From a virus: 64,000 bases of DNA. Every line of letters starts with the position of its first letter. Position 1 is the stretch's first letter. Below, in pieces: positions 1,102 through 41,063 of this stretch. The notes under the pieces are model-generated. The model was not told the origin of the DNA. It did not search any database and saw only the letters and a program-made list of their open reading frames with translations. The stretch covers positions 1 through 64,000 of the IMG/VR virus record IMGVR_UViG_3300027758_000008. One strand, given 5' to 3'. A program made the position numbers and the translations under genes.

Positions 1102-1140
1102 AACTGGTCAAACCACTAGACGCAATATTTATGGTATTGT
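1102..1140 (+). promoter_or_regulatory. FadR-like box + extended -10 promoter
   Basis: AACTGGTCAAACCACTA (1102-1118), 16 bp, TATTGT (1135-1140) preceded by TGG. Confidence 0.7.
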
Positions 1141-2560: not shown

Positions 2561-2916
2561 CCGCGTTGCACCTGTAAAGGATACGCACCACCCTGACCAA
2601 TAGCCGTTAACACACAGACTCCCGCGTCCATACCTTGAAGCAAATCAAGATATTGATTACCGGAGCCTTTGCTTGTGTCGAATGATACCGAGTCACCGGT
2701 AAAGCTAGACTGGCTGGAAAGTTGCCCGCCTGACTGCTGCACAATCATCGCCGCAGCGCCATACATCTTAGCTAATTTAGCTTGTGCGTCACTGTAGCCG
2801 CCTGTCGTGATACATGCGTCCGCTTCGTCCACCACATCAATAATCATTTGAATTGACGCATCTGACAGGCTGTTAGGCACAAAATCCCGAACCTCTGAAA
2901 CTGTTATCGTAGCCAT
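2557..2916 (-). CDS. Putative head-tail adaptor
   Basis: Helical ~120-aa protein first in the connector cluster; conserved in B. Confidence 0.6.
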   Translation of the reverse strand: MATITVSEVRDFVPNSLSDASIQMIIDVVDEADACITTGGYSDAQAKLAKMYGAAAMIVQQSGGQLSSQSSFTGDSVSFDTSKGSGNQYLDLLQGMDAGVCVLTAIGQGGAYPLQVQRG

Positions 2917-5383: not shown

Positions 5384-5422
5384 CACTGGTTAGACCACTT
5401 GTTACGTACAGTTTACTATAAT
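5384..5422 (+). promoter_or_regulatory. FadR-like box + -10 promoter of moron array
   Basis: CACTGGTTAGACCACTT (5384-5400), 16 bp, TATAAT (5417-5422). Confidence 0.75.
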
Positions 5423-9914: not shown

Positions 9915-9931
9915 CACTGGTCTAACCACTT
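9915..9931. promoter_or_regulatory. FadR-like box upstream of portal gene
   Basis: CACTGGTCTAACCACTT; on the minus strand followed after 2 nt by TAAAAT; identical in B (49434-49450). Confidence 0.6.
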
Positions 9932-14355: not shown

Positions 14356-14535
14356 TCAATCATTAACCACTAGCGGCTGATAACTAACACCTACCGGTAA
14401 CTGCATAAAATCCAGCTCGTATTCGCTATACATCCATTGTTGAAATGCGTATTCGGCTTCCTGGAGGTTTCGTGCGTCGAATATGTCTACCGAATACTCC
14501 TTACCGCTGATTGTTGTGGATGCGCGGTAGTTCAT
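14356..14535 (-). CDS. Small hypothetical protein
   Basis: 59 aa; homolog at the 3' part of 53284..53499. Confidence 0.55.
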   Translation of the reverse strand: MNYRASTTISGKEYSVDIFDARNLQEAEYAFQQWMYSEYELDFMQLPVGVSYQPLVVND

Positions 14536-15380
14536 AACAGGCCGCTCTTGAATATGTGAGAAACTACATTAACCGTCCACCCGTTTCCAGAGAGAATTTC
14601 AGCTTGACGCTGGCTTACGCAGTCAAAATAATCGCCTGGAGCGCCAACTATGAGAGCCAATGACCTTTTACCCGGCTTAAAATACCTCCCATTTGCATGG
14701 ATAAAATTCCCATTCCAGCTAGCGTACTGCCTTGCTGTCATAGTTATCCCTTTTGAGCCTCCCTTTGCGATTTTTGAATATTTCTTGGCCTCCTGGAATT
14801 CGCTATTCTTATTCCACCACTCCACCCACCCTTCAGACATTTCAACATAATCAACAATATAGCTTAGAAATGATGATTTATCTTTGTAGAACTTCCCGCC
14901 GTAATCCCAATTGAACCAGTAATACCTAGGTCTTTCACATGGGCTGTAGTCTGACGAATTAATAAAAACAGGCTCAACACCTAATTTATCACTTATAACC
15001 GCAAGGTATTCTTTTTTCATCTTCACGTTTTCAAGCATGAATTTAATGTCAGGATTAACGCTTTTGATGTGATTCAGAATATCAACGTAAACGAAAAACA
15101 ACTTACTGCGTGGGTCGTCAAAGGCCAGCTGCTTGCCTGCAAAGCTAAACCCCTGGCACGGTGAGCCACCAATTAACAAATCAATCGAGGCCCAATCAAT
15201 ATCCCATTCGCGCCACTTGGTAACATCGCCCAGCTGAACCGTGTCAGGATAATTCGCCTGAGTTACTTTAATCGCGTATTTATCCACCTCTGCCGCATAA
15301 TAAACATCTGGCTTAATTCCAATTCTATTCAGCGCAATCTGGCCGCATGATAAGCCGTCAAACAAACTTAATACCTTCAC
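14532..15380 (-). CDS. DNA cytosine-5 methyltransferase
   Basis: Motifs LSLFDG (I), GSPCQGFS (IV), ENV (VI), R.R (VIII), GNGW (X); not at this site in B. Confidence 0.88.
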   Translation of the reverse strand: MKVLSLFDGLSCGQIALNRIGIKPDVYYAAEVDKYAIKVTQANYPDTVQLGDVTKWREWDIDWASIDLLIGGSPCQGFSFAGKQLAFDDPRSKLFFVYVDILNHIKSVNPDIKFMLENVKMKKEYLAVISDKLGVEPVFINSSDYSPCERPRYYWFNWDYGGKFYKDKSSFLSYIVDYVEMSEGWVEWWNKNSEFQEAKKYSKIAKGGSKGITMTARQYASWNGNFIHANGRYFKPGKRSLALIVGAPGDYFDCVSQRQAEILSGNGWTVNVVSHIFKSGLL

Positions 15381-15547
15381 GACAACAACCCCCATCCAAG
15401 CATAAATAGCCACACAGCCCACCCGAATCCCATCGCAACAACATTACCTTTCGTCTGCTCGATATATTCACCCCATGCAAGTTCAAGCGATGCCCATGCT
15501 ATACCGGCGAATGTGACTACCATGTATGTGTAATAGAATTCGTTCAT
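15377..15547 (-). CDS. Small membrane protein
   Basis: Two hydrophobic segments; homologous DNA in B. Confidence 0.5.
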   Translation of the reverse strand: MNEFYYTYMVVTFAGIAWASLELAWGEYIEQTKGNVVAMGFGWAVWLFMLGWGLLS

Positions 15548-15909: not shown

Positions 15910-16187
15910 ACCTCACCCCGCGCTTTTGCTAGCAGTTGCTCAACCTCGTCATGGCTAAAATCCTCCATGCCGTAAGGTTGCGTTAACTTTTCAAGCATCG
16001 CATACATATCCGGTGCCGCTGCTATTAGGTGGGCGTTACAGTGAGACTCTTCGCTTATGTTGCATCCTGTATGGTCTGGGTCAAATCCCCACACTGTCCC
16101 AACAGTACCCGACATTGAATTAATTTCAATTAAGCCTCCTTCGTCATTTACCGTCCACTCGCCTTTCGTAAATTTAGCCTCACTCAT
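15906..16187 (-). CDS. Hypothetical phage protein
   Basis: FTKGEW...NAHLIAAAPDM motif common in phage small proteins. Confidence 0.6.
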   Translation of the reverse strand: MSEAKFTKGEWTVNDEGGLIEINSMSGTVGTVWGFDPDHTGCNISEESHCNAHLIAAAPDMYAMLEKLTQPYGMEDFSHDEVEQLLAKARGEV

Positions 16188-17089
16188 TTCCTCGCACTCC
16201 AACTCTTCTTAGCCTTATGTATCGCCGTAAATGCTTCGATATTATCGTTAACCACGCGATACGCGTATTGCGGGTGACAACCTACCGCATTGGATAGTGA
16301 CAGCACCGTGCGATGTTTACCCGTTTTAGCCTCTGCGATGATTGCAGGTGCTATTGTGCCGTATCGTTTCATTACTCTTCCTCACAGTCCAGTATCTCGG
16401 CGCCGTACCAATAACTGTCAACGTACTGTGCTTTCGCATGTGCCATTGCTTTGGCGTCATCCGCATTATCAGCCTCAACCCACAATTCATCTTCCATCAT
16501 CATTTGTGTTTTTACTAAATATTTCATACCCTACCCCCATTCTCTGCGTATTTGCGCATAAGTTCTGGATGATTGAAAATCTCAAATGCTACCTTGTGCG
16601 TTTTCAACCCAGTTACCTGCGCGATTTTAATGTAACTCCGTGCGCCGTCTTGTAGTGCGGCGCTCACTTTACGGTAGTGTTTGTTCATATGAAGTCAGAC
16701 CAATCATAACCAACCGGCATTTCTTCCGACATGACGATATGGCTATAAATTTCATCCATGGCGACTTGGTTAAACTTACGCTCCACCATCCCTGATGTTG
16801 ACTCATCCGCGAACGACTTTTCTACCAACTGACGCGCAAATGTATCATCTTCAATCATCGAGCCGATGACAGTGTAATCAGACACAATATGCGTATTCCC
16901 GCAGTAACGCCAGGTCAGCGTTTTCTGGTCTGCAACGCGCTCTGCCAGCTTCTCGGCGATATACCATAGATTTTCATTGCTGATGCTGTCATAAGTCATT
17001 GGCGTTGATTCTGGCTTGTCTGGTAGCTGTCTGTCGTATGCGGTTTGGTGTTGCTCGAAATTCATCTTCATTTCCTCCATTAGTTTCAC
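16184..17089 (-). other. Run of four small coupled ORFs (16184-16372, 16372-16527, 16524-16688, 16685-17089), two with HTH-like segments
   Basis: Overlapping stop/start codons; conserved in B 53628-54557. Confidence 0.6.
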
Positions 17090-17091
17090 CC

Positions 17092-17130
17092 ATTATAACG
17101 GGTTAATTTTGTTTTGTGGTTTGACCAGTT
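17092..17130 (-). promoter_or_regulatory. FadR-like box + -10 promoter (leftward)
   Basis: Minus strand AACTGGTCAAACCACAA (17130-17114), 16 bp, TATAAT (17097-17092). Confidence 0.75.
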
Positions 17131-17858: not shown

Positions 17859-18782
17859 TTCTCAAGCTCCTTTAAAAGTGCGTCTGCTTTTACAACCGCT
17901 GCGCTTTCAACCCCTTCATAGTCGCCGTTAGCTAGTAAACCCTGCATAGCCAATCCTGCAAAATACTCGCGCTTGGTTAGACCGTAATGCTGGCCATATC
18001 CACCATCGTCCATTACTGGAATCGCCGGTTCATCTGCTTTCATTTCCCTTCCTCCATTTTCTCTAGCCGAACAGATAGAACCTGCTCGCCGTTTTTGTTT
18101 ACGTATGGCCCGTCTAGCTCAAACGACTTTATGCGTCGCTTGGCTAGGTTGGGGTGTTTTTTGATTAGTTGTGAGAGGGTCATTTAACACCCCATCGCTT
18201 TCATTGCTTTGTAAGTAATGACCGCCCTATCTCCATTGCTCCAATTCTTACCAACCTCATTGATGAAACAACTTTCAAGAAAATCCCAATCCTCCAGCAA
18301 TGCATCCCATTGCTTTGACTTTCCTTTTAGCTTGCCCATACCTGCTTTCAACTCTGGGATCTCATCAAGCAAAAGTAAGCACCGGTTAAAATCGGCAGGG
18401 TCGTGCGGGTGCGCGTAGCAGCATTCAATATTAATTATTGCGCAGGCCATAAATTTGCTACTCATCCCTACGCGACCATTCACAAGCCAATGTAAAACTT
18501 TTTCTCTAATTTTATTTGTTACTCTCATTTCATCTCTTCCTCCTCAGTTAATAATTAAATTATACGTCACCGTTTTGTGGTGTCGATGTCGTCTACCGCA
18601 CCAGCATGCAGTTCATCGACAGGTAACCGCCCTTTTGACTTAATCCATACTTGACCGTCTTTGTCGATACAGTCGCCGCGCTTAATCCAGTTGTGCAACT
18701 GCGTTTCCGTTCGACCTGTCGCCTTAGCTGCTGCGTATACGCTGCCGTAAGCTTGTTTGATGTGTTGTGATAGTGGTTTCAT
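17855..18782 (-). other. Small hypothetical ORFs 17855-18043, 18040-18183, 18184-18528, 18567-18782
   Basis: Coupled ORFs; TCGACA-16-TATAAT promoter at 18586-18559 precedes 18184..18528. Confidence 0.55.
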
Positions 18783-19780
18783 AATTCATACCCATTGCAA
18801 CTTTCAGAGCAGCCATCATAAGCAGGCTCCGCCCCTATCATCTTTCTTAAAGACCAAGCATCAAACATTTTTGAATCCCCGATTAACATATCAACTGTTC
18901 TATTTCCTCTGAAAAATCTTCTCTCACCTCCTGGGGCTTTCGTTGTTTTATACTCCTCTTCAAACCACTTGAAAGCCTCAAATCTATCTTCATTCTCTTT
19001 TGCTAATAGGAATAATTTTTTATCCGATTTCTTCCAGCATGTAGCGCAATTCCCTTCGTGCTCCTCAAGCTCCAAAGTAAAAGGCTGAGACTCCCAGAAA
19101 AAATTAACATCCTCTTTCGTCATGGGAAACCAGTCGCACATAGGGAAAACAAGGTTGTATTTATTTAATTTTTCGCTGTACTTATTCAACTTTTTTAGTT
19201 GATTCTCTGTAAGTATTTCAATCTTTGGATTGTCGAACAGATGCCTCATTCTTTCTACACCTGAGTTTCTAAAATGCATATCATCAACACCAACCAAAGA
19301 AAGAATTGACGCAACCTCATTGCTACATGCTCTTTTCTTCTCATCAACCCTGAAGCCAAGCGCTTGTTTTGCATTCGTTAAACCTGAACTCTTCCTATAG
19401 CTCTCTATGACATGTTCTTTTAGTCTGTCTGAGCATTGAGGGTAAGATCTGTTTGGGATTCCATTTTTTCTAACATGGGCATGAAATGGATGATTTGGGT
19501 CTTTGTACTGATTAATCCTGTAAGCATTTTCAAAGTTCGTAACTCTATGCGTATTCCCCTTTCCTTTTGGGTTAACTACAGCCTCAAGCCACACTACATT
19601 CAATCCAAAATGCTTATCGCACCTATCAATAAAACTAAGTGTCTCTTCGTTCTCCATTCCTGTGTTAGCAAAAACGCAAATTTGCTCATCATATTCCGAC
19701 CATTTTGGATCTGTTTTAATTATTATCGCTTGGGCCATGGATGATTTTCCGCTGCTGGTGTTCGTTATTATTACTGACAT
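18779..19780 (-). CDS. PAPS reductase-like (PP-loop) protein
   Basis: SSGKSS, FANTG.E..ETL.F, GNC..CWKKS, CSESC; AT-rich; absent from B. Confidence 0.75.
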   Translation of the reverse strand: MSVIITNTSSGKSSMAQAIIIKTDPKWSEYDEQICVFANTGMENEETLSFIDRCDKHFGLNVVWLEAVVNPKGKGNTHRVTNFENAYRINQYKDPNHPFHAHVRKNGIPNRSYPQCSDRLKEHVIESYRKSSGLTNAKQALGFRVDEKKRACSNEVASILSLVGVDDMHFRNSGVERMRHLFDNPKIEILTENQLKKLNKYSEKLNKYNLVFPMCDWFPMTKEDVNFFWESQPFTLELEEHEGNCATCWKKSDKKLFLLAKENEDRFEAFKWFEEEYKTTKAPGGERRFFRGNRTVDMLIGDSKMFDAWSLRKMIGAEPAYDGCSESCNGYEL

Positions 19781-20054
19781 ATCTTTTCCTACTCAGCGCT
19801 AGCGACCTAAGCCGCACCACCAAAAATATCAACCATATTCTTCATTGCCTCTTTCATTGCGAACTTACTGCATGGCCATGGGGCCGTTGAGCCGTTGCAT
19901 GTTACAACCCAGTAAGCACCAGAATCTTTATATGCAGTAACCTTTACGCCGTTGATTTGTTTTGTGTAAGTTTTCATTTTGCTTATCTCCTCTAGTTGAT
20001 GATTCAAGTATGCCCTAATGAATTTCGTTTGCAAGTACTTTTCGTTATTATTTT

Positions 20055-20071
20055 ATCTGGTCGTACCACTT
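20055..20071. promoter_or_regulatory. Possible FadR-like box upstream of leftward early promoter
   Basis: ATCTGGTCGTACCACTT; degenerate in B (TGGC), and lies within an ORF. Confidence 0.35.
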
Positions 20072-20199
20072 CACACTCACACCCTGGAAACCGTTCCCGC
20101 AAACTCTGCTCGATGTCGTCGGCATCGGATAGCATGGCGAATTGGTATTTTTTGCCTTTGTAGGTCAGTTTTATTTGGTAGGGTTTCATTTTTAGCCTC

Positions 20200-20590
20200 G
20201 TGTAACAGTTTTATTTGTTTAATATCAATAGTTTACGTCATAAAAACGCCGATTGTAACAGTGTGTAACACCTTCTGTTACAGCTACAAGCCGCGCCACA
20301 TAAGGGATATGGCGTAATCCGTAACAATGTAACAATATATAGATAAAGAGTAACTTTTATTATATATGGCATAATATATAGAAATGGGCTATTTATTATA
20401 TATAGTGTCTATATTTTTGAAAAACTGTTACATCGTTACAAAATGACATAAATAATTGATTTATAAAGTAACAGCAAGCGTAACAAAGCGTAACAAAAAA
20501 CAAAAAGTGTTACGGTATATAAGAAAGCCCGCATATAAGCGGGCCCTTTAAGTGTTACATCGTAACGGTTACTCAGTAAAAGCGTAACAA
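20200..20590. repeat. Putative replication origin A with GTAACA/TGTTAC repeats
   Basis: Many copies in both orientations around an AT-rich core, directly after the primase-helicase gene. Confidence 0.65.
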
Positions 20591-25498: not shown

Positions 25499-25527
25499 TT
25501 GACACAATAAACCATAAAGCATAGGAT
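25499..25527 (+). promoter_or_regulatory. Sigma70-type early promoter
   Basis: TTGACA-17-TAGGAT. Confidence 0.7.
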
Positions 25528-27011: not shown

Positions 27012-27320
27012 ATGGCTAAACGATTAGTAGTTAAAACAGGCGAGTACACAAACCAGCAAGGTGAGACAAAGGGCGAATACACTAAAATTGGTGTAATTTT
27101 AAATAACCAAAACGGCGACTTTATTTTGATGGACCCGACCATCAATTTAGCTGGCGTGCTACTTAAACAGAATGCTCTAGCCGCCAAGCAAGGTAAGCAG
27201 CAAAGCGACTCTGTTATGGTCAGCGTATTCGAGGACCAACCTCAACAAAACGCACCGCAGCAACAGCCGCAAGGTGGATACCAGCAACAACCCAGCCCTA
27301 GCGGTGGCGCTCCGTTCTAA
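27012..27320 (+). CDS. SSB-like protein
   Basis: Short beta-rich domain, Gln/Pro linker, C-terminal PF. Confidence 0.55.
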   Translation: MAKRLVVKTGEYTNQQGETKGEYTKIGVILNNQNGDFILMDPTINLAGVLLKQNALAAKQGKQQSDSVMVSVFEDQPQQNAPQQQPQGGYQQQPSPSGGAPF

Positions 27321-27350
27321 TAAGGCAAGCCGGCTCAACAGGGCCGGCTC

Positions 27351-27389
27351 CACTGGTCAAACCACCTTGGCGCGTAGAGATGGTATATT
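27351..27389 (+). promoter_or_regulatory. FadR-like box + extended -10 promoter
   Basis: CACTGGTCAAACCACCT (27351-27367), 16 bp, TATATT (27384-27389) preceded by TGG; follows a GC hairpin. Confidence 0.75.
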
Positions 27390-27411
27390 GTAGGAAATGG
27401 AGGGGGATAAA

Positions 27412-28119
27412 ATGATTGAAATAAAAAACAGATTTACAGGGGGAATTATCCACAGTGGTGATTTCCAAAGCGTTAAAGAATGTTTGCTTGATGCTATTAA
27501 AAATGACGCAAACCTACGGGGCGCAAACCTACGGGGCGCAGACCTACGGTACGCAAACCTAGAGGACGCAAACCTACGGGGCGCAGACCTACGGTACGCA
27601 AACCTAGAGGACGCAAACCTACTGGGCGCAAACCTACTGGACGCAGACCTAGGGGACGCAGACCTACGGTACGCAGACCTACTGGGCGCAAACCTACGGT
27701 ACGCAGACCTAGGGGACGCAGACCTAGGGGGCGCAAACCTAGGGGGCGCAAACCTAGGGGACGCAGACCTAGGGGGCGCAAACCTAGGGGGCGCAAACCT
27801 ACGGTACGCAAACCTACGGGGCGCAGACCTACGGTACGCAAACCTAGGGGACGCAGACCTACGTTGGTGTGCTGGCAATAAATGCGAAATCAAATCACTA
27901 TGGTTTAGTGATGTATACCCAATAACCTATACATCGGAATATATGCAAATTGGCTGTGAGCGTCACAAAATTGCCGATTGGTGGGAATTTGACGACAAGC
28001 GCATTTTAAAAATGGATGGTAAAACTGCATTGAAGTTTTGGCGGGAAAATAAAGATTTGATTAAGCAGATTGTTGACGCCAATCCAGCCAAGCCTACAGG
28101 CAAGGAGTCTGACAAATGA
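27412..28119 (+). CDS. Pentapeptide repeat protein
   Basis: 24 A[N/D]Lxx repeats. Confidence 0.9.
   Translation: MIEIKNRFTGGIIHSGDFQSVKECLLDAIKNDANLRGANLRGADLRYANLEDANLRGADLRYANLEDANLLGANLLDADLGDADLRYADLLGANLRYADLGDADLGGANLGGANLGDADLGGANLGGANLRYANLRGADLRYANLGDADLRWCAGNKCEIKSLWFSDVYPITYTSEYMQIGCERHKIADWWEFDDKRILKMDGKTALKFWRENKDLIKQIVDANPAKPTGKESDK
27508..27867 (+). repeat. 24 x 15-bp tandem repeat (GCA RAC CTA nnn nnn)
   Basis: Counted from the sequence; codons at positions 1-3 are near-invariant. Confidence 0.9.
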
Positions 28120-28723
28120 CAAAACAACAACTACTAGCGCTGTTGCGTGAGGCGCTATCTGACTGTATTTGCAAGGGTATAAGCATTAACGAGTATATCA
28201 AAGAGGTAGAGCGCACAAACCACGTAGGTGATTTGGAGTTGCCGGCGCTTTCATCTGACACCCAATGCGAACATGAATATGTCGTTAGATATGACCACGG
28301 CACATGCAAAAAGTGCGGGTGGATATTTACTGACGGCGGCTGGGGAACTGCTAAACGCATGTGGTTTAAAAGCCTTGATGATGCAAAGTTCTATAAGCAG
28401 CATGGTCGACTACCACAACCACCGGAGGGAGTATGAGTGAGTTAAAGCAAATGTTAAGTCTTCAATTAAGACTGGCGAGAAAGTCGGGGGCGAATGCTAT
28501 GGCTGATTTACTTGGCAACTCGAAAAGAGAAATCGAGCGGCTAGAATCACAGGTTAGGCAAATGTCAGAGTTATGCTTGACGGTTGAGGAAGTAAATTCA
28601 ATCAAAGCCGATGCTGTGCGTGAGGCTGCTAAAGAAATTAACTGGACTGCACTTACAAAGCCGCAGCAGGCAAAGGACGCGCTTGTTTATCTGGCGAACA
28701 AATTGGAGAAGGGCGAGTTATGA
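28116..28723 (+). other. Two hypothetical ORFs (28116-28436, 28433-28723)
   Basis: ATGA-coupled. Confidence 0.55.
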
Positions 28724-29016
28724 AAACCTGCGAATACCTGCGAAAGCGGATGCTGAATGAGTTGGTAACAATTCATGGCCCTAATTGCTGCGAGTACGCT
28801 GACATTGATGATGTAATCGAATTCATCCTCAGCCGCGACAAAGACCTTGCTGTATCTGTTTCTGAGTTCGTAAGCGCAACAGGAAGTAAAATCAAGGCCG
28901 CCGAGAAGTTAGGATGCAGCCGAAACACGATTTTGCGCTATGAAGATGACACAGATTGCAAATACCACCACGTTTACAATGGCCGATTGTTTACGGCTAA
29001 GGGTAGCGCGCAGTGA
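28720..29016 (+). CDS. NinH-like HTH protein
   Basis: AAEKLGCSRNTILRYEDD..CKYHHVYNGRL resembles remembered lambda NinH. Confidence 0.65.
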   Translation: MKTCEYLRKRMLNELVTIHGPNCCEYADIDDVIEFILSRDKDLAVSVSEFVSATGSKIKAAEKLGCSRNTILRYEDDTDCKYHHVYNGRLFTAKGSAQ

Positions 29017-29370
29017 GTCAGGGTGTCTTATTCGGATACAGTGAAACATATTACGAGATACACGCGTATCTAATTGATGTCTGCTCGTATTCTAACGAGG
29101 CTGCACATGATTACATTTTAGAGGCTTGCCCGCATGTGCTGGCGCATGATTTTGTGCCAGCGCCCGTTACAAGTTTGGAGTATGAAGAATGACCAAAAAC
29201 ACAGGCAAAGCATCGTCGCCAGGATACCGAAAAGTCGCGACAATATACTGCCCAATCTACGGCTACGAGATAGAGCGCACTATTTGCGAGCACGACGATG
29301 TTTGGCTTGTTGACGTTTGGGGCGTTCCGTATCGGTGGGAGTGGGTGAAATCAGTGAAGGTGTATTGGCG

Positions 29371-29640
29371 ATGAATATGGAGCCGTTTAATTTTTGCATA
29401 CAATGGATGGTGTACGATTATTTGCCAACCCTGAAAACCGGAGACTTCCTACCTGGTCAACTTTGCATGCCCGATAGGATAGGCGTTGAGCGAAAGACGT
29501 ATCGAGAAGTGTTACGCGTTCTGGATTTCCATGGAGTTATAAGTGTCAAGCATGGCAAACCCACAAAGTTCATAAGCCTTAACAAGCCTGGACTGCTGTA
29601 CGTCATGGAGCGTAAAGGCTTAACTGGTCAAACCACATAA
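29371..29640 (+). CDS. Truncated FadR-like (GntR family) winged-helix regulator, 89 aa
   Basis: IGVERKTYREVLRVLDFHGVISVKHGKPTKF aligns with remembered E. coli FadR [31 protein letters not shown]; no C-terminal acyl-CoA domain. Confidence 0.8.
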   Translation: MNMEPFNFCIQWMVYDYLPTLKTGDFLPGQLCMPDRIGVERKTYREVLRVLDFHGVISVKHGKPTKFISLNKPGLLYVMERKGLTGQTT

Positions 29641-29660
29641 TCGAAAAATGGTGGTATATT
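29622..29660 (+). promoter_or_regulatory. FadR-like box + extended -10 promoter at the 3' end of the fadR-like gene
   Basis: AACTGGTCAAACCACAT (29622-29638), 16 bp, TATATT (29655-29660) preceded by TGG. Confidence 0.75.
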
Positions 29661-29708
29661 AACCACACTAACAACACCGCAGCAGTATCGCGGATAACGG
29701 AGATACTC

Positions 29709-29885
29709 ATGCGTAGAAGAAATATAGAGGCACCTTTTGTACAAATTAGCAAGAATGCTAAGATTTTTGAGTGCGGCATTTTGGTCGCTATTGTTCTTAC
29801 TGTTTTTGCCTTTGCTGTTTGCTCTGTCGGGCCAATGATTATTGGTGATTCACTACCGGAAGCAACCAAGGCAATCACAGAATAG
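29709..29885 (+). CDS. Small single-pass membrane protein (58 aa)
   Basis: GGAG RBS; hydrophobic GILVAIVLTVFAFAVCSV. Confidence 0.5.
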   Translation: MRRRNIEAPFVQISKNAKIFECGILVAIVLTVFAFAVCSVGPMIIGDSLPEATKAITE

Positions 29886-29892
29886 TTTCAAC

Positions 29893-29965
29893 GCCACCGG
29901 CAGTCACGCATAATTTAACTGTTAGCGCAGTCGCGATGTGTGGCTACCTCAAACCGGTGGCTCCA
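29893..29965 (+). ncRNA. Candidate structured RNA with acceptor-like stem and 3' NCCA
   Basis: GCCACCGG/CCGGTGGC-TCCA; inner 10-bp stem with two G-U pairs; intergenic. Confidence 0.35.
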
Positions 29966-29979
29966 TTTTTGGAGGGAAT

Positions 29980-30603
29980 ATGATTCACAGCGTAGAAGAC
30001 AAAACACAAAAAGAACTTGTCGAGATTGTCAAGATTCAGATGGAGGAATACGAGAAGTTATTAAAGACTGAAAAGCAAACCGGAGCAATGCTGAACGAAG
30101 CGCTGGAGGCTCTCAAAGCAGCAGAGCGTGAGCGGGATGATTTGGAGAAACGACTATCAATTTACGAAAGTAAGGATAATCAATATGCGAATAAATTAAA
30201 AAGAATGCTGAAACTGCAAGCGCAGCTACACAAAAAGCAAGGGGCCGAGTCTCTTGGAGTGTTATTTGATAGCGCATTGTCAGAGATTGAAGCGTTAGAA
30301 AAGCGCGAAAAAGCAGTAGATATAGAACGGTATGTATTATCTTACTGCCTAAATTTCATTAAAGATTTCGCAACCCATGATTCTGAGAGCAAAGACGCTG
30401 CTTTTTTACGACTGAAAAACACTATTAATGACAGCCATGTCAGAGCTAATGAGCTCTTAAACAAATTCGCCATTGAGCAGCAGATTAAAGGAGCAAAAGC
30501 AGCAGGAAGCAAGTTAATTCAAAGTCATGAAGGACAAAAGAAGCAATGGTTTGATGAAGTCTTTATTGGTCAACTACGCCAACAACTAAACGGGGGTGAG
30601 TGA
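29980..30603 (+). CDS. Coiled-coil hypothetical protein
   Basis: GGAGGG RBS; heptad-like composition. Confidence 0.6.
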   Translation: MIHSVEDKTQKELVEIVKIQMEEYEKLLKTEKQTGAMLNEALEALKAAERERDDLEKRLSIYESKDNQYANKLKRMLKLQAQLHKKQGAESLGVLFDSALSEIEALEKREKAVDIERYVLSYCLNFIKDFATHDSESKDAAFLRLKNTINDSHVRANELLNKFAIEQQIKGAKAAGSKLIQSHEGQKKQWFDEVFIGQLRQQLNGGE

Positions 30604-41024: not shown

Positions 41025-41063
41025 AACTGGTCAAACCACTAGACGCAATATTTATGGTATTGT
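41025..41063 (+). promoter_or_regulatory. FadR-like box promoter, no moron downstream
   Basis: Identical to 1102-1140. Confidence 0.65.

Follow-up and report, generated by a model that had tools for sequence, protein, structure and literature searches.

The 64,000-nucleotide (nt) stretch of DNA analysed here, called the window below, comprises bases 1-64000 of the 73,523-bp IMG/VR virus record IMGVR_UViG_3300027758_000008 and contains a gene for a protein of 89 amino acids (aa), P0001, that resembles the DNA-binding domain of the regulator FadR and has no acyl-CoA sensor domain. Our tentative reading, to which we assign a probability of about 45%, is that P0001 is an optional, ligand-blind binder of FadR-type operators, which would act as a modulator and not as the primary reader of the FadR-like boxes that recur in the promoters of the same virus. 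The occurrence of a FadR-like domain and of FadR-like promoter elements in one genome counts in favour of this reading. The record consists of two related phage genomes arranged head to tail, phage A (1-39923) and phage B (39924-73523), of which only phage A carries the gene.

The original prediction of an 89-aa open reading frame (ORF) at 29371-29640 was confirmed by ORF and translation, and the motifs it quoted are present in the translation (GVERKTYREVLRVLDFHGVISVKHGKPTKF). Both FadR equivalog models of NCBIfam ranked first for P0001, with 33.8 and 33.6 bits (E 2.7e-8), and GlcC followed at 21.9 bits; the match covers FadR positions 26-73 only and lies far below the cut-offs of the two models (TIGR02812 and NF003444; 249.2 and 189 bits). 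When the PDB was searched with P0001 alone, FadR chains of Vibrio and E. coli took the first six places (E 9e-6). A profile made of the family of short relatives described below found FadR at E 5.5e-11 over profile positions 6-79, and 11 PDB sequences reached E≤0.001 with it, most of them named as FadR or GntR-family proteins and one, 4HAM (Lmo2241), not so named. These values place the similarity to FadR well outside chance. BLASTP aligned P0001 with E. coli K-12 FadR over 57 residues at 39% identity with an offset of 4, so that R45, T47, R49, H65, G66, K67, and T69 of FadR correspond to the identical residues R41, T43, R45, H61, G62, K63, and T65 of P0001. This map agrees with the original prediction, according to which the equivalents of R45, R49, H65, K67, and T69 are kept and R35 is replaced. 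Among the seven residues given as DNA contacts of FadR in the excerpted text of PMC4259882 (R35, T44, R45, T46, T47, R49, and H65), four are identical in P0001 (R45, T47, R49, and H65). The claimed absence of the sensor domain also stood, as the protein stops at residue 89, about 18-20 residues beyond the wing strand, and no Pfam or NCBIfam model matches past the winged helix. Longer forms of P0001 were not found in two homologue searches. The PHROGs gave weak matches only (E 0.035 and 0.082) and no family for P0001, and a search of BFVD gave none at E≤0.001.

An AlphaFold2 model of P0001, built on a seven-row alignment of the family (predicted local distance difference test score of 86.3, predicted template modelling score of 0.78), places helices at residues 5-20, 30-37, and 41-53, wing strands at 57-60 and 63-67, and an extra helix at 73-81. 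The predicted fold is of the GntR type, with three helices and a two-strand wing. When this model was compared with the PDB by Foldseek, a Vibrio FadR chain was the first match and the only one at E≤0.001; FadR of E. coli and V. cholerae and small GntR proteins of the YtrA/BusR type came next, and the listed matches belong almost all to the GntR family, for which a DNA-binding domain structure is also represented by 8PQM of B. subtilis LutR. Results of these comparisons support the view that P0001 is a DNA-binding domain alone, devoid of an effector domain, and that its nearest curated family is FadR.

P0001 is not a singleton. A homologue search of 1.84 billion representatives returned 35 proteins at E≤0.001, led by short proteins: P0002 (101 aa with the called start, 94% identical to P0001), P0003 (85 aa, 49%), P0004 (100 aa, 45%), P0005 (89 aa, 49%, encoded on a contig of 39.4 kb), and the further short relatives P0009 (72 aa) and P0011 (76 aa). 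The sizes in this family range from 72 to 101 aa, relatives at 37-49% identity keep the length, and G24, G38, R45, L51, and H61-G62-K63 are kept in all seven alignment rows. The exact sequence of P0001, with a longer called start, is encoded on seven further contigs, and a one-substitution variant on another. The substitutions in the 94% variant (I10L, D16E, S58Y, G74A, and R81S) include none placed in the recognition helix or in the wing. A search for close homologues returned P0002 only, and searches with the alignment pattern gave 96 matches in viral contigs and 16 in genome contigs, none of which was confirmed as a relative. The pattern also led to 21 loci in metagenome contigs, none of them a short form: all encode GntR regulators of the usual kind, the ORFs of which measure 113-512 aa when counted from the first start, and the two shortest are cut by contig ends.

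Since the relatives retain both length and core residues, P0001 does not appear to be a decaying fragment, an outcome that the original prediction had named as its own refutation and that the intact frame, the conserved size and core residues, and the identical or near-identical copies on at least eight other contigs set aside. A functionless remnant of a full-length regulator is in our view extremely improbable. P0001 is indeed without the effector and dimerization domain used by full-length GntR proteins, and the prediction of a homodimer from two copies gave no evidence either way (a score of 0.03 vs. a mark of 0.42). Against these points stand the translational coupling of the gene, the conservative nature of the substitutions in the 94% variant, and a confident fold prediction that includes the conserved extra helix. 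Judging from the sequences of its relatives, the gene is real, conserved, and under constraint.

Short proteins of this kind are also numerous outside the family. In the ESM Atlas, 22 of 30 feature matches are GntR-only clusters, many clusters consist of GntR-only proteins of 90-110 aa, and Uroviricota is the commonest known phylum in the top cluster (92 aa, 54 members). The abundance of such clusters indicates that sensor-less GntR domains are a recurrent, unstudied kind, and no study of short stand-alone GntR proteins was found in a literature search of titles and abstract starts.

Within the GntR proteins, several comparisons point to FadR. The FadR models are the top NCBIfam match for seven of the eight short proteins (mini-FadRs, or minis), the exception being P0003 with GlcC on top; their margin is 12-17 bits for P0001, P0002, P0009, and the protein of Alteromonas phage P24 described below, and only 1.5-3 bits for P0004, P0005, and P0011. 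With the family profile, E. coli FadR reached 44.6 bits and eight further GntR paralogues of E. coli 18.0-32.8 bits. All four FadR rows of our alignment and four of the eight minis contain the wing motif GKPT, which none of the 40 rows of other GntR proteins has. The alignment of P0001 with P0012, a divergent FadR of full length, begins at the start of both proteins (36% over 80 residues, including PF.F of helix 1). On these comparisons, no known family is closer to P0001 than FadR, of which the GKPT wing is a signature, and an origin by capture from FadR seems plausible.

The second line of evidence comes from the promoters. The gene of P0001 is the last of seven ORFs (27397..29640), each junction of which is a 4-nt overlap (ATGA or GTGA); its own start codon shares ATGA with the stop codon of the preceding ORF. 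Two promoters of a common type flank the gene, one upstream of the operon, at 27351, and the other in its last five codons, at 29622. Their characteristic element, the box (A/C)ACTGGT-N3-ACCAC, precedes a -10 hexamer by exactly 17 nt. The 16-mer AACTGGTCAAACCACA with at most three mismatches occurs 8 times in the window vs. 0.47 expected, a count reached in none of 100 shuffles, and the core CTGGTCNAACCAC with at most one mismatch occurs 11 times in the record, in which the reversed control pattern is absent (0 matches). A TAnnnT hexamer lies exactly 17 nt past the box in five of seven boxes of phage A, five of six of phage B, three of six of contig G004, and three of four of contig G005 (background 0.015); the two contigs represent one phage (overlapping ORFs with 98-100% amino-acid identity). 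A TGn extension is present at four of these hexamers, three of them in A and the fourth in B, and a ribosome-binding site and a start codon follow. The -35 position of the box promoters is occupied by ACCAC(N), not by TTGACA, and with the hexamer taken as -12..-7 the centre of the palindrome would be near -37. A scan of IMG/VR with the box 14-mer gave at least 111 stretches, almost all with single chance matches; two matches in one stretch were seen in L099 (G004) only, among the matches listed. Sigma-70-like sites without boxes, at 25499(+), 20423(-), and 18586(-), are no commoner than in shuffles.

The FadR operator consensus given in the excerpted PMC9329746 is aaCTGGTCnGACC(T/A)Gtt, and according to the same text FadR as an activator binds just upstream of -35. 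This consensus has 12 capitalised positions, of which each of the seven boxes of phage A matches 10, and in six of the boxes the left half-site is matched in full.

A second case is provided by Alteromonas phage P24 (MK241539.2), which encodes, beside the integrase, a stand-alone FadR-like protein of 74 aa (AZU97337.1). This protein matches the FadR model with 42.7 bits, the next model with 25.2 bits, and P0001 with 37.7% identity over 53 residues. In the 46.9-kb genome of P24, both matches to the FadR consensus with at most two mismatches lie in a 1.1-kb intergenic region upstream of the mini gene, and the position of one of them next to a -10 hexamer suggests autoregulation.

In the reading that we prefer, phage A would be one lineage of a mosaic group of marine tailed phages, with P0001 as optional cargo, encoded at the end of an operon of seven genes that is expressed from a box promoter. 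P0001, a GntR winged helix with a short linker helix, would be a functional DNA-binding protein and would occupy TGGT-N3-ACCA operators constitutively, its DNA binding and dimerization being presumed. FadR binds a 17-bp operator and is released from it by long-chain acyl-CoA; because the acyl-CoA domain is absent from P0001, such release is not expected of it. Its nearest targets would be the phage's own boxes, located at about -37 in promoters with a good -10 hexamer (often TGn-extended) and no -35, at which it would exert feedback or modulation, in a direction that we infer. Host FadR-type sites would be the second possible target. The obligatory reader of the boxes would be a factor common to all box-bearing phages, either a host factor such as the host FadR or a conserved phage early protein.

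Several observations weigh against this reading, and some of them concern the protein itself and its affinities. Three FadR contact residues are changed (R35 to L31, T44 to E40, and T46 to K42), and W60, F74, and W75, reported as necessary for FadR binding in the excerpt of PMC4259882, are V, L, and N in P0001. Arginine at helix-turn-helix (HTH) position 28 (R35 of FadR) co-varies with the G of TKGT according to PMC4494728 (in excerpt); this position is leucine in P0001, and arginine is found there in two of the eight minis. The score of P0001 with the Pfam GntR model PF00392 is 20.8 bits (E 3.1e-4; residues 21-66 on profile positions 18-63 of 64) vs. a threshold of 27, with the same outcome in a six-frame search. 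In the raw phmmer ranking, the best long matches are MocR-type proteins of 480-515 aa. On the DNA side, the right half-site misses two of six capitalised FadR positions in most boxes of phage A. The pattern TKGT-N3-ACMA with its 3-nt spacing is listed in the excerpted PMC4494728 as common to FadR, PdhR, LldR, GlcC, ExuR, and DgoR, so that the box is of the FadR-subfamily type and not proven to be FadR-specific. In the genome of P24, the reversed control pattern gave 1+1 matches. In the maximum-likelihood tree (50 rows, 82 columns; P0021 and P0026 were left out, as they are no GntR proteins), the minis lie in an unresolved polytomy, outside a 99/98 clade that consists of the four FadR rows; a tree with five minis and FadR as one clade was not rejected by the approximately unbiased (AU) test (p 0.357). 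The check by profiles and phylogeny that had been proposed for P0001 was divided in its outcome, with FadR models on top and the minis outside the FadR clade; of the captured FadR that the original prediction envisaged, FadR stood as the nearest curated family and capture as no more than a plausible origin.

These points bear on a doubtful but credible alternative, namely, that P0001 is a stand-alone GntR winged helix whose specificity has drifted with the loss of R35 and which regulates an unrelated operator, e.g., a site of the cargo operon or of a competing phage. The likeness of the boxes to FadR operators would then be a coincidence, or the boxes would be read by the host FadR or by a conserved phage early protein. 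The commonness of short GntR-only proteins (~90-110 aa), the scarcity of arginine in the R35 column, the failure of the tree to join the minis to FadR, and the presence of other small HTH proteins common to the box-bearing phages are all in line with it. However, it does not account for the FadR-specific GKPT wing and the 12-bit margin of the FadR models, and it leaves the combination of a FadR-like protein with FadR-like sites, found again in P24, as an unexplained double coincidence.

The other points against P0001 as a binder of the boxes come from the slot that its gene occupies. Phage B has the same box promoters in the same places without a mini-FadR: a single-sequence search of the whole record found one copy only (in A), and the best match of the family profile among the ORFs of B had an E of 2.5. 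The slot in B contains an unrelated 117-aa ORF (L002:9876-10229) with the same GLTGQTT ending as P0001, and since the DNA common to A and B begins at 'aaaggctt' just before the box, the TGQTT tail of P0001 is promoter sequence at a recombination junction. G004 and G005 (29 kb and 14 kb), the sequence of which ends just after the 27351-type promoter, contain boxes and no mini-FadR in that part. In runs X7 and X9, contigs fit the window from 29621 rightwards and differ to the left, and one X7 contig joins 29290 to 29621 (with 80% likeness and short sides, i.e., among relatives only). Bins 29352-29579 are without cover in both runs, a gap to which no weight was given. Small HTH-like ORFs common to A, B, and G004 (62 aa, 16184..16372; 54 aa, 16524..16688; and a Cro-like one of 71 aa, 18567..18782) are candidates for alternative box readers; comparison of the mini family with these three proteins by hhalign gave no homology (probabilities 0.3, 3.0, and 0.1). 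A weak profile match in G004/G005 (E 0.065) was assigned to a replication-initiator-like HTH_36 protein beside the DnaB helicase.

The existence of the box-bearing phage B without a mini-FadR implies that the boxes need another reader, for which a host FadR-type protein and a conserved phage early protein are the candidates. The FadR-type boxes are real, but the role of P0001 as the regulator of the phage boxes, as originally predicted, is weakened by the boxes of B, by the X7 and X9 contigs, and by the replacement of R35 by leucine, and co-occurrence of boxes and gene failed in phage B. A mini-FadR dedicated to a box regulon that exists for it is thus most unlikely. The box core is a FadR-subfamily motif with 10 of 12 strong FadR positions, and the gene has a box promoter on either side, one of which transcribes it; yet boxes identical in sequence and geometry occur in B without the gene, as well as in the covered part of G004/G005, the 3' box belongs to the slot rather than to P0001, as the ending of the unrelated B gene indicates, and a gene located downstream of a box promoter cannot start the regulon. 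Another arrangement, which we regard as unlikely, is that the host FadR (or a close paralogue) bound at about -37 gates most of the phage promoters as it does at fabA-type promoters, tying phage expression to the long-chain acyl-CoA state of the host, and that the sensor-less copy of phage A, made from a box promoter, takes over the boxes in the course of infection and escapes this gate.

The likely host bears on one further alternative. The portal protein of the record is nearest to those of Vibrio, Pseudoalteromonas, and Alteromonas phages (31-37% identity), and by this kinship of portal and structural proteins the host is likely a marine gamma-proteobacterium. Scanning of genome contigs with a tail protein gave one match of 32%, in a Castellaniella metagenome-assembled genome, which is no guide to the host, and a megablast search against phages gave zero matches. 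P0001 might be a host-directed mimic that ignores the boxes and either occupies host fad/fab operators regardless of acyl-CoA or poisons FadR via mixed dimers, fixing the lipid metabolism of the host. We consider this improbable, its attractions notwithstanding: P0001 has the wing of FadR, its nearest curated family, and no sensor domain, FadR is confined to gamma-proteobacteria according to the excerpted PMC4259882, in agreement with the affinities of the phage structural genes, and a precedent exists in a cyanophage MarR-type transcription factor that acts on host genes (PMC9692554, abstract). On the other side, R35 is one of three contact residues (of seven) that differ, none of the annotated phage genes was seen to be related to lipids, and a protein with affinity for host FadR sites should also recognize the phage boxes, given their close similarity.

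The positions of the gene, of the box promoters, and of the P24 sites are collected in Table 1.

Table 1. Location of the P0001 gene, its operon, and the box elements in the window, and of the FadR-consensus-like sites of phage P24
Feature	Position	Strand	Description
P0001 gene	29371..29640	+	89 codons and stop; sensor-less FadR-like winged-helix protein
Six upstream cargo genes	27397..29374	+	Pentapeptide-repeat, 106-aa, 96-aa, NinH-like 98-aa, 59-aa, and 61-aa proteins; PHROG/Pfam matches
Cargo-operon box promoter	27351..27389	+	Box CACTGGTCAAACCACC, 17-nt spacer, TATATT with TGn extension
3'-end box promoter	29622..29660	+	AACTGGTCAAACCACA, which encodes T85-G-Q-T-T89; 17-nt spacer; TATATT at 29655-29660
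Box	1102..1117	+	Followed by 17 nt and TATTGT
Box	5384..5399	+	CACTGGTTAGACCACT, followed by 17 nt and TATAAT
Box	9915..9930	+	No -10 at the standard spacing; between two minus-strand structural genes
Box	17115..17130	-	17 nt, TATAAT; heads a long leftward operon (small genes, methyltransferase, terminase, structural genes)
Box variant	20055..20070	+	ATCTGGTCGTACCACT; no -10; inside 20004..20189(-), putative early leftward operon
FadR-consensus-like sites of P24	L143:2425-2437 and 2803-2827		One of them (CACTGGTCGGAGTTGTT) abuts a TGn-TAGAAT -10

The 27351 box promoter is identical in phage B and G005, and it marks the switch from G002-like to B-like sequence. Box promoters were found exactly at mosaic junctions at 27351 and 29622 of the window, at L002:8407 and 10211, and at L149:13461. 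Unrelated ORFs of A and B in overlapping frames (27274..27393 and L002:8186..8449) also end alike, with TGQTTLARRDGIL before the stop. The 29622 promoter is placed upstream of 29709..29885 and 29938..30603 and is predicted to drive both; the ORF that follows P0001 and starts at 29709 encodes a 58-aa hydrophobic peptide. An inverted repeat, GTGGT-N6-ACCAC (29651-29666), overlaps the -10 hexamer downstream of P0001 and is absent from the counterpart in B (TATAGT...). The box promoter at 1102 is followed in phage A by a gene for a 103-aa protein (1102-1442); its counterpart in B (41025-41063) has no gene and is directed antisense into the tail operon. The box variant at 20055-20070 is conserved in G004 and G005 and degenerate in B (CTGGCCGTACCAC), with a sigma-70-like site, TTTTCA-17-TATAAT, upstream of it at 20423..20395(-); a role as a roadblock or feedback operator for the early leftward operon is possible.

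In the cargo operon, the first gene (27397-28119) encodes a 240-aa pentapeptide-repeat protein and contains about 22 copies of a 15-nt tandem repeat (27446-27925), within which assemblies break, and another (28720-29016) encodes a 98-aa NinH-like protein with a Fis-type HTH (Pfam PF06322, E 1.7e-8). The G+C content of the P0001 gene is 44.4% vs. 47.0% of phage A.

That P0001 is phage-encoded, as originally predicted, agrees with its location in an IMG/VR virus record that also encodes a portal protein, a primase, a helicase, and a RecE-like exonuclease; a methyltransferase is among the phage genes too. The structural genes of phages A and B have 84-98% DNA identity, and their modules are mosaic. 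A 39,657-nt contig from the marine-sediment run X1 spans phage A round the circle, with the sole break in the 15-nt tandem repeat; by closing phage A on itself, it indicates that an independent phage A genome of about 39.9 kb exists as well, so that an assembly join or a mixed concatemer may account for the 73.5-kb record. With a 205-aa protein as the query, three genomes (G001-G003) with a common replication module and without boxes were found; one of them, the complete G002, has the replication module of phage A at 78-97% amino-acid identity and neither boxes nor a mini-FadR gene. A 366-aa protein as the query led to G004 and G005 only. In a region common to B and G004, a 333-aa protein similar to 3'-phosphoadenosine-5'-phosphosulfate (PAPS) reductase (18779-19780) and a DNA methyltransferase (14532-15422) may form a DNA-modification module.

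Binding of P0001 to the boxes or to FadR sites of the host would bring three novelties: a metabolite-sensing regulator of which a virus carries a natural ligand-blind copy, a compact model of the GntR winged helix on DNA without dimerization and effector domains, and a handle on a class of phage promoters in which a FadR-type operator replaces the -35 element. It would also suggest, in a form open to test, that certain marine phages monitor the fatty-acid status of their hosts or escape it. If it does not bind, P0001 would be another uncharacterised small HTH protein of a phage, and the box-promoter system would then be of interest. A literature search of titles and abstract starts found no description of a phage-encoded FadR-type domain, and none of the P24 protein.

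Among known systems, P0001 is the closest to FadR of E. coli and Vibrio (TIGR02812, NF003444; PDB 1E2X, 1H9T, 1HW2, 4P96, and 5DV5). It has the same winged helix, the HGKPTK wing, and REVL, the similarity reaches helix 1 and the linker helix that follows the wing, and the operator type expected of the family matches the boxes in its genome. Unlike FadR, it has no FadR_C acyl-CoA domain, comprises 89 aa vs. 239 aa, is encoded by a phage, differs at R35, T44, T46, W60, F74, and W75, and stands outside the FadR crown clade (99/98).

With the short GntR-only proteins of unnamed clusters and of P24, it has in common a single winged helix, a size of 72-110 aa, and the lack of an effector domain. The P24 protein is similar to P0001 also in that FadR models match it best and FadR-like sites lie upstream; in contrast to P0001, it is encoded beside the integrase of a temperate phage and not in a box-promoter slot. 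The YtrA-type minis (BusR, Lmo2241/4HAM, 3BY6, and 2EK5), which combine a GntR winged helix with a short helical tail, were among the Foldseek matches. According to the excerpted PMC4494728, YtrA proteins keep about 50 residues, forming two helices, for dimerization, and their operators are widely spaced GT/AC pairs. P0001 differs from them in a single 9-residue helix (73-81), in identity of 12-22%, and in boxes unlike YtrA operators, and it was not assigned to the YtrA subfamily, as it is without the two-helix C-terminal extension of about 50 aa.

With respect to promoters, the boxes invite comparison with the MotA boxes of phage T4 and the Mor and C sites of phage Mu, i.e., activator-dependent phage promoters in which the site of the factor stands in place of the -35 element. 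The box promoters resemble them in a good -10 hexamer, the absence of -35, and a conserved element placed over the -35 region at a constant distance. MotA, Mor, and C are indispensable; in the phages described here the element is a palindrome of the FadR-subfamily type, and the mini-FadR is optional.

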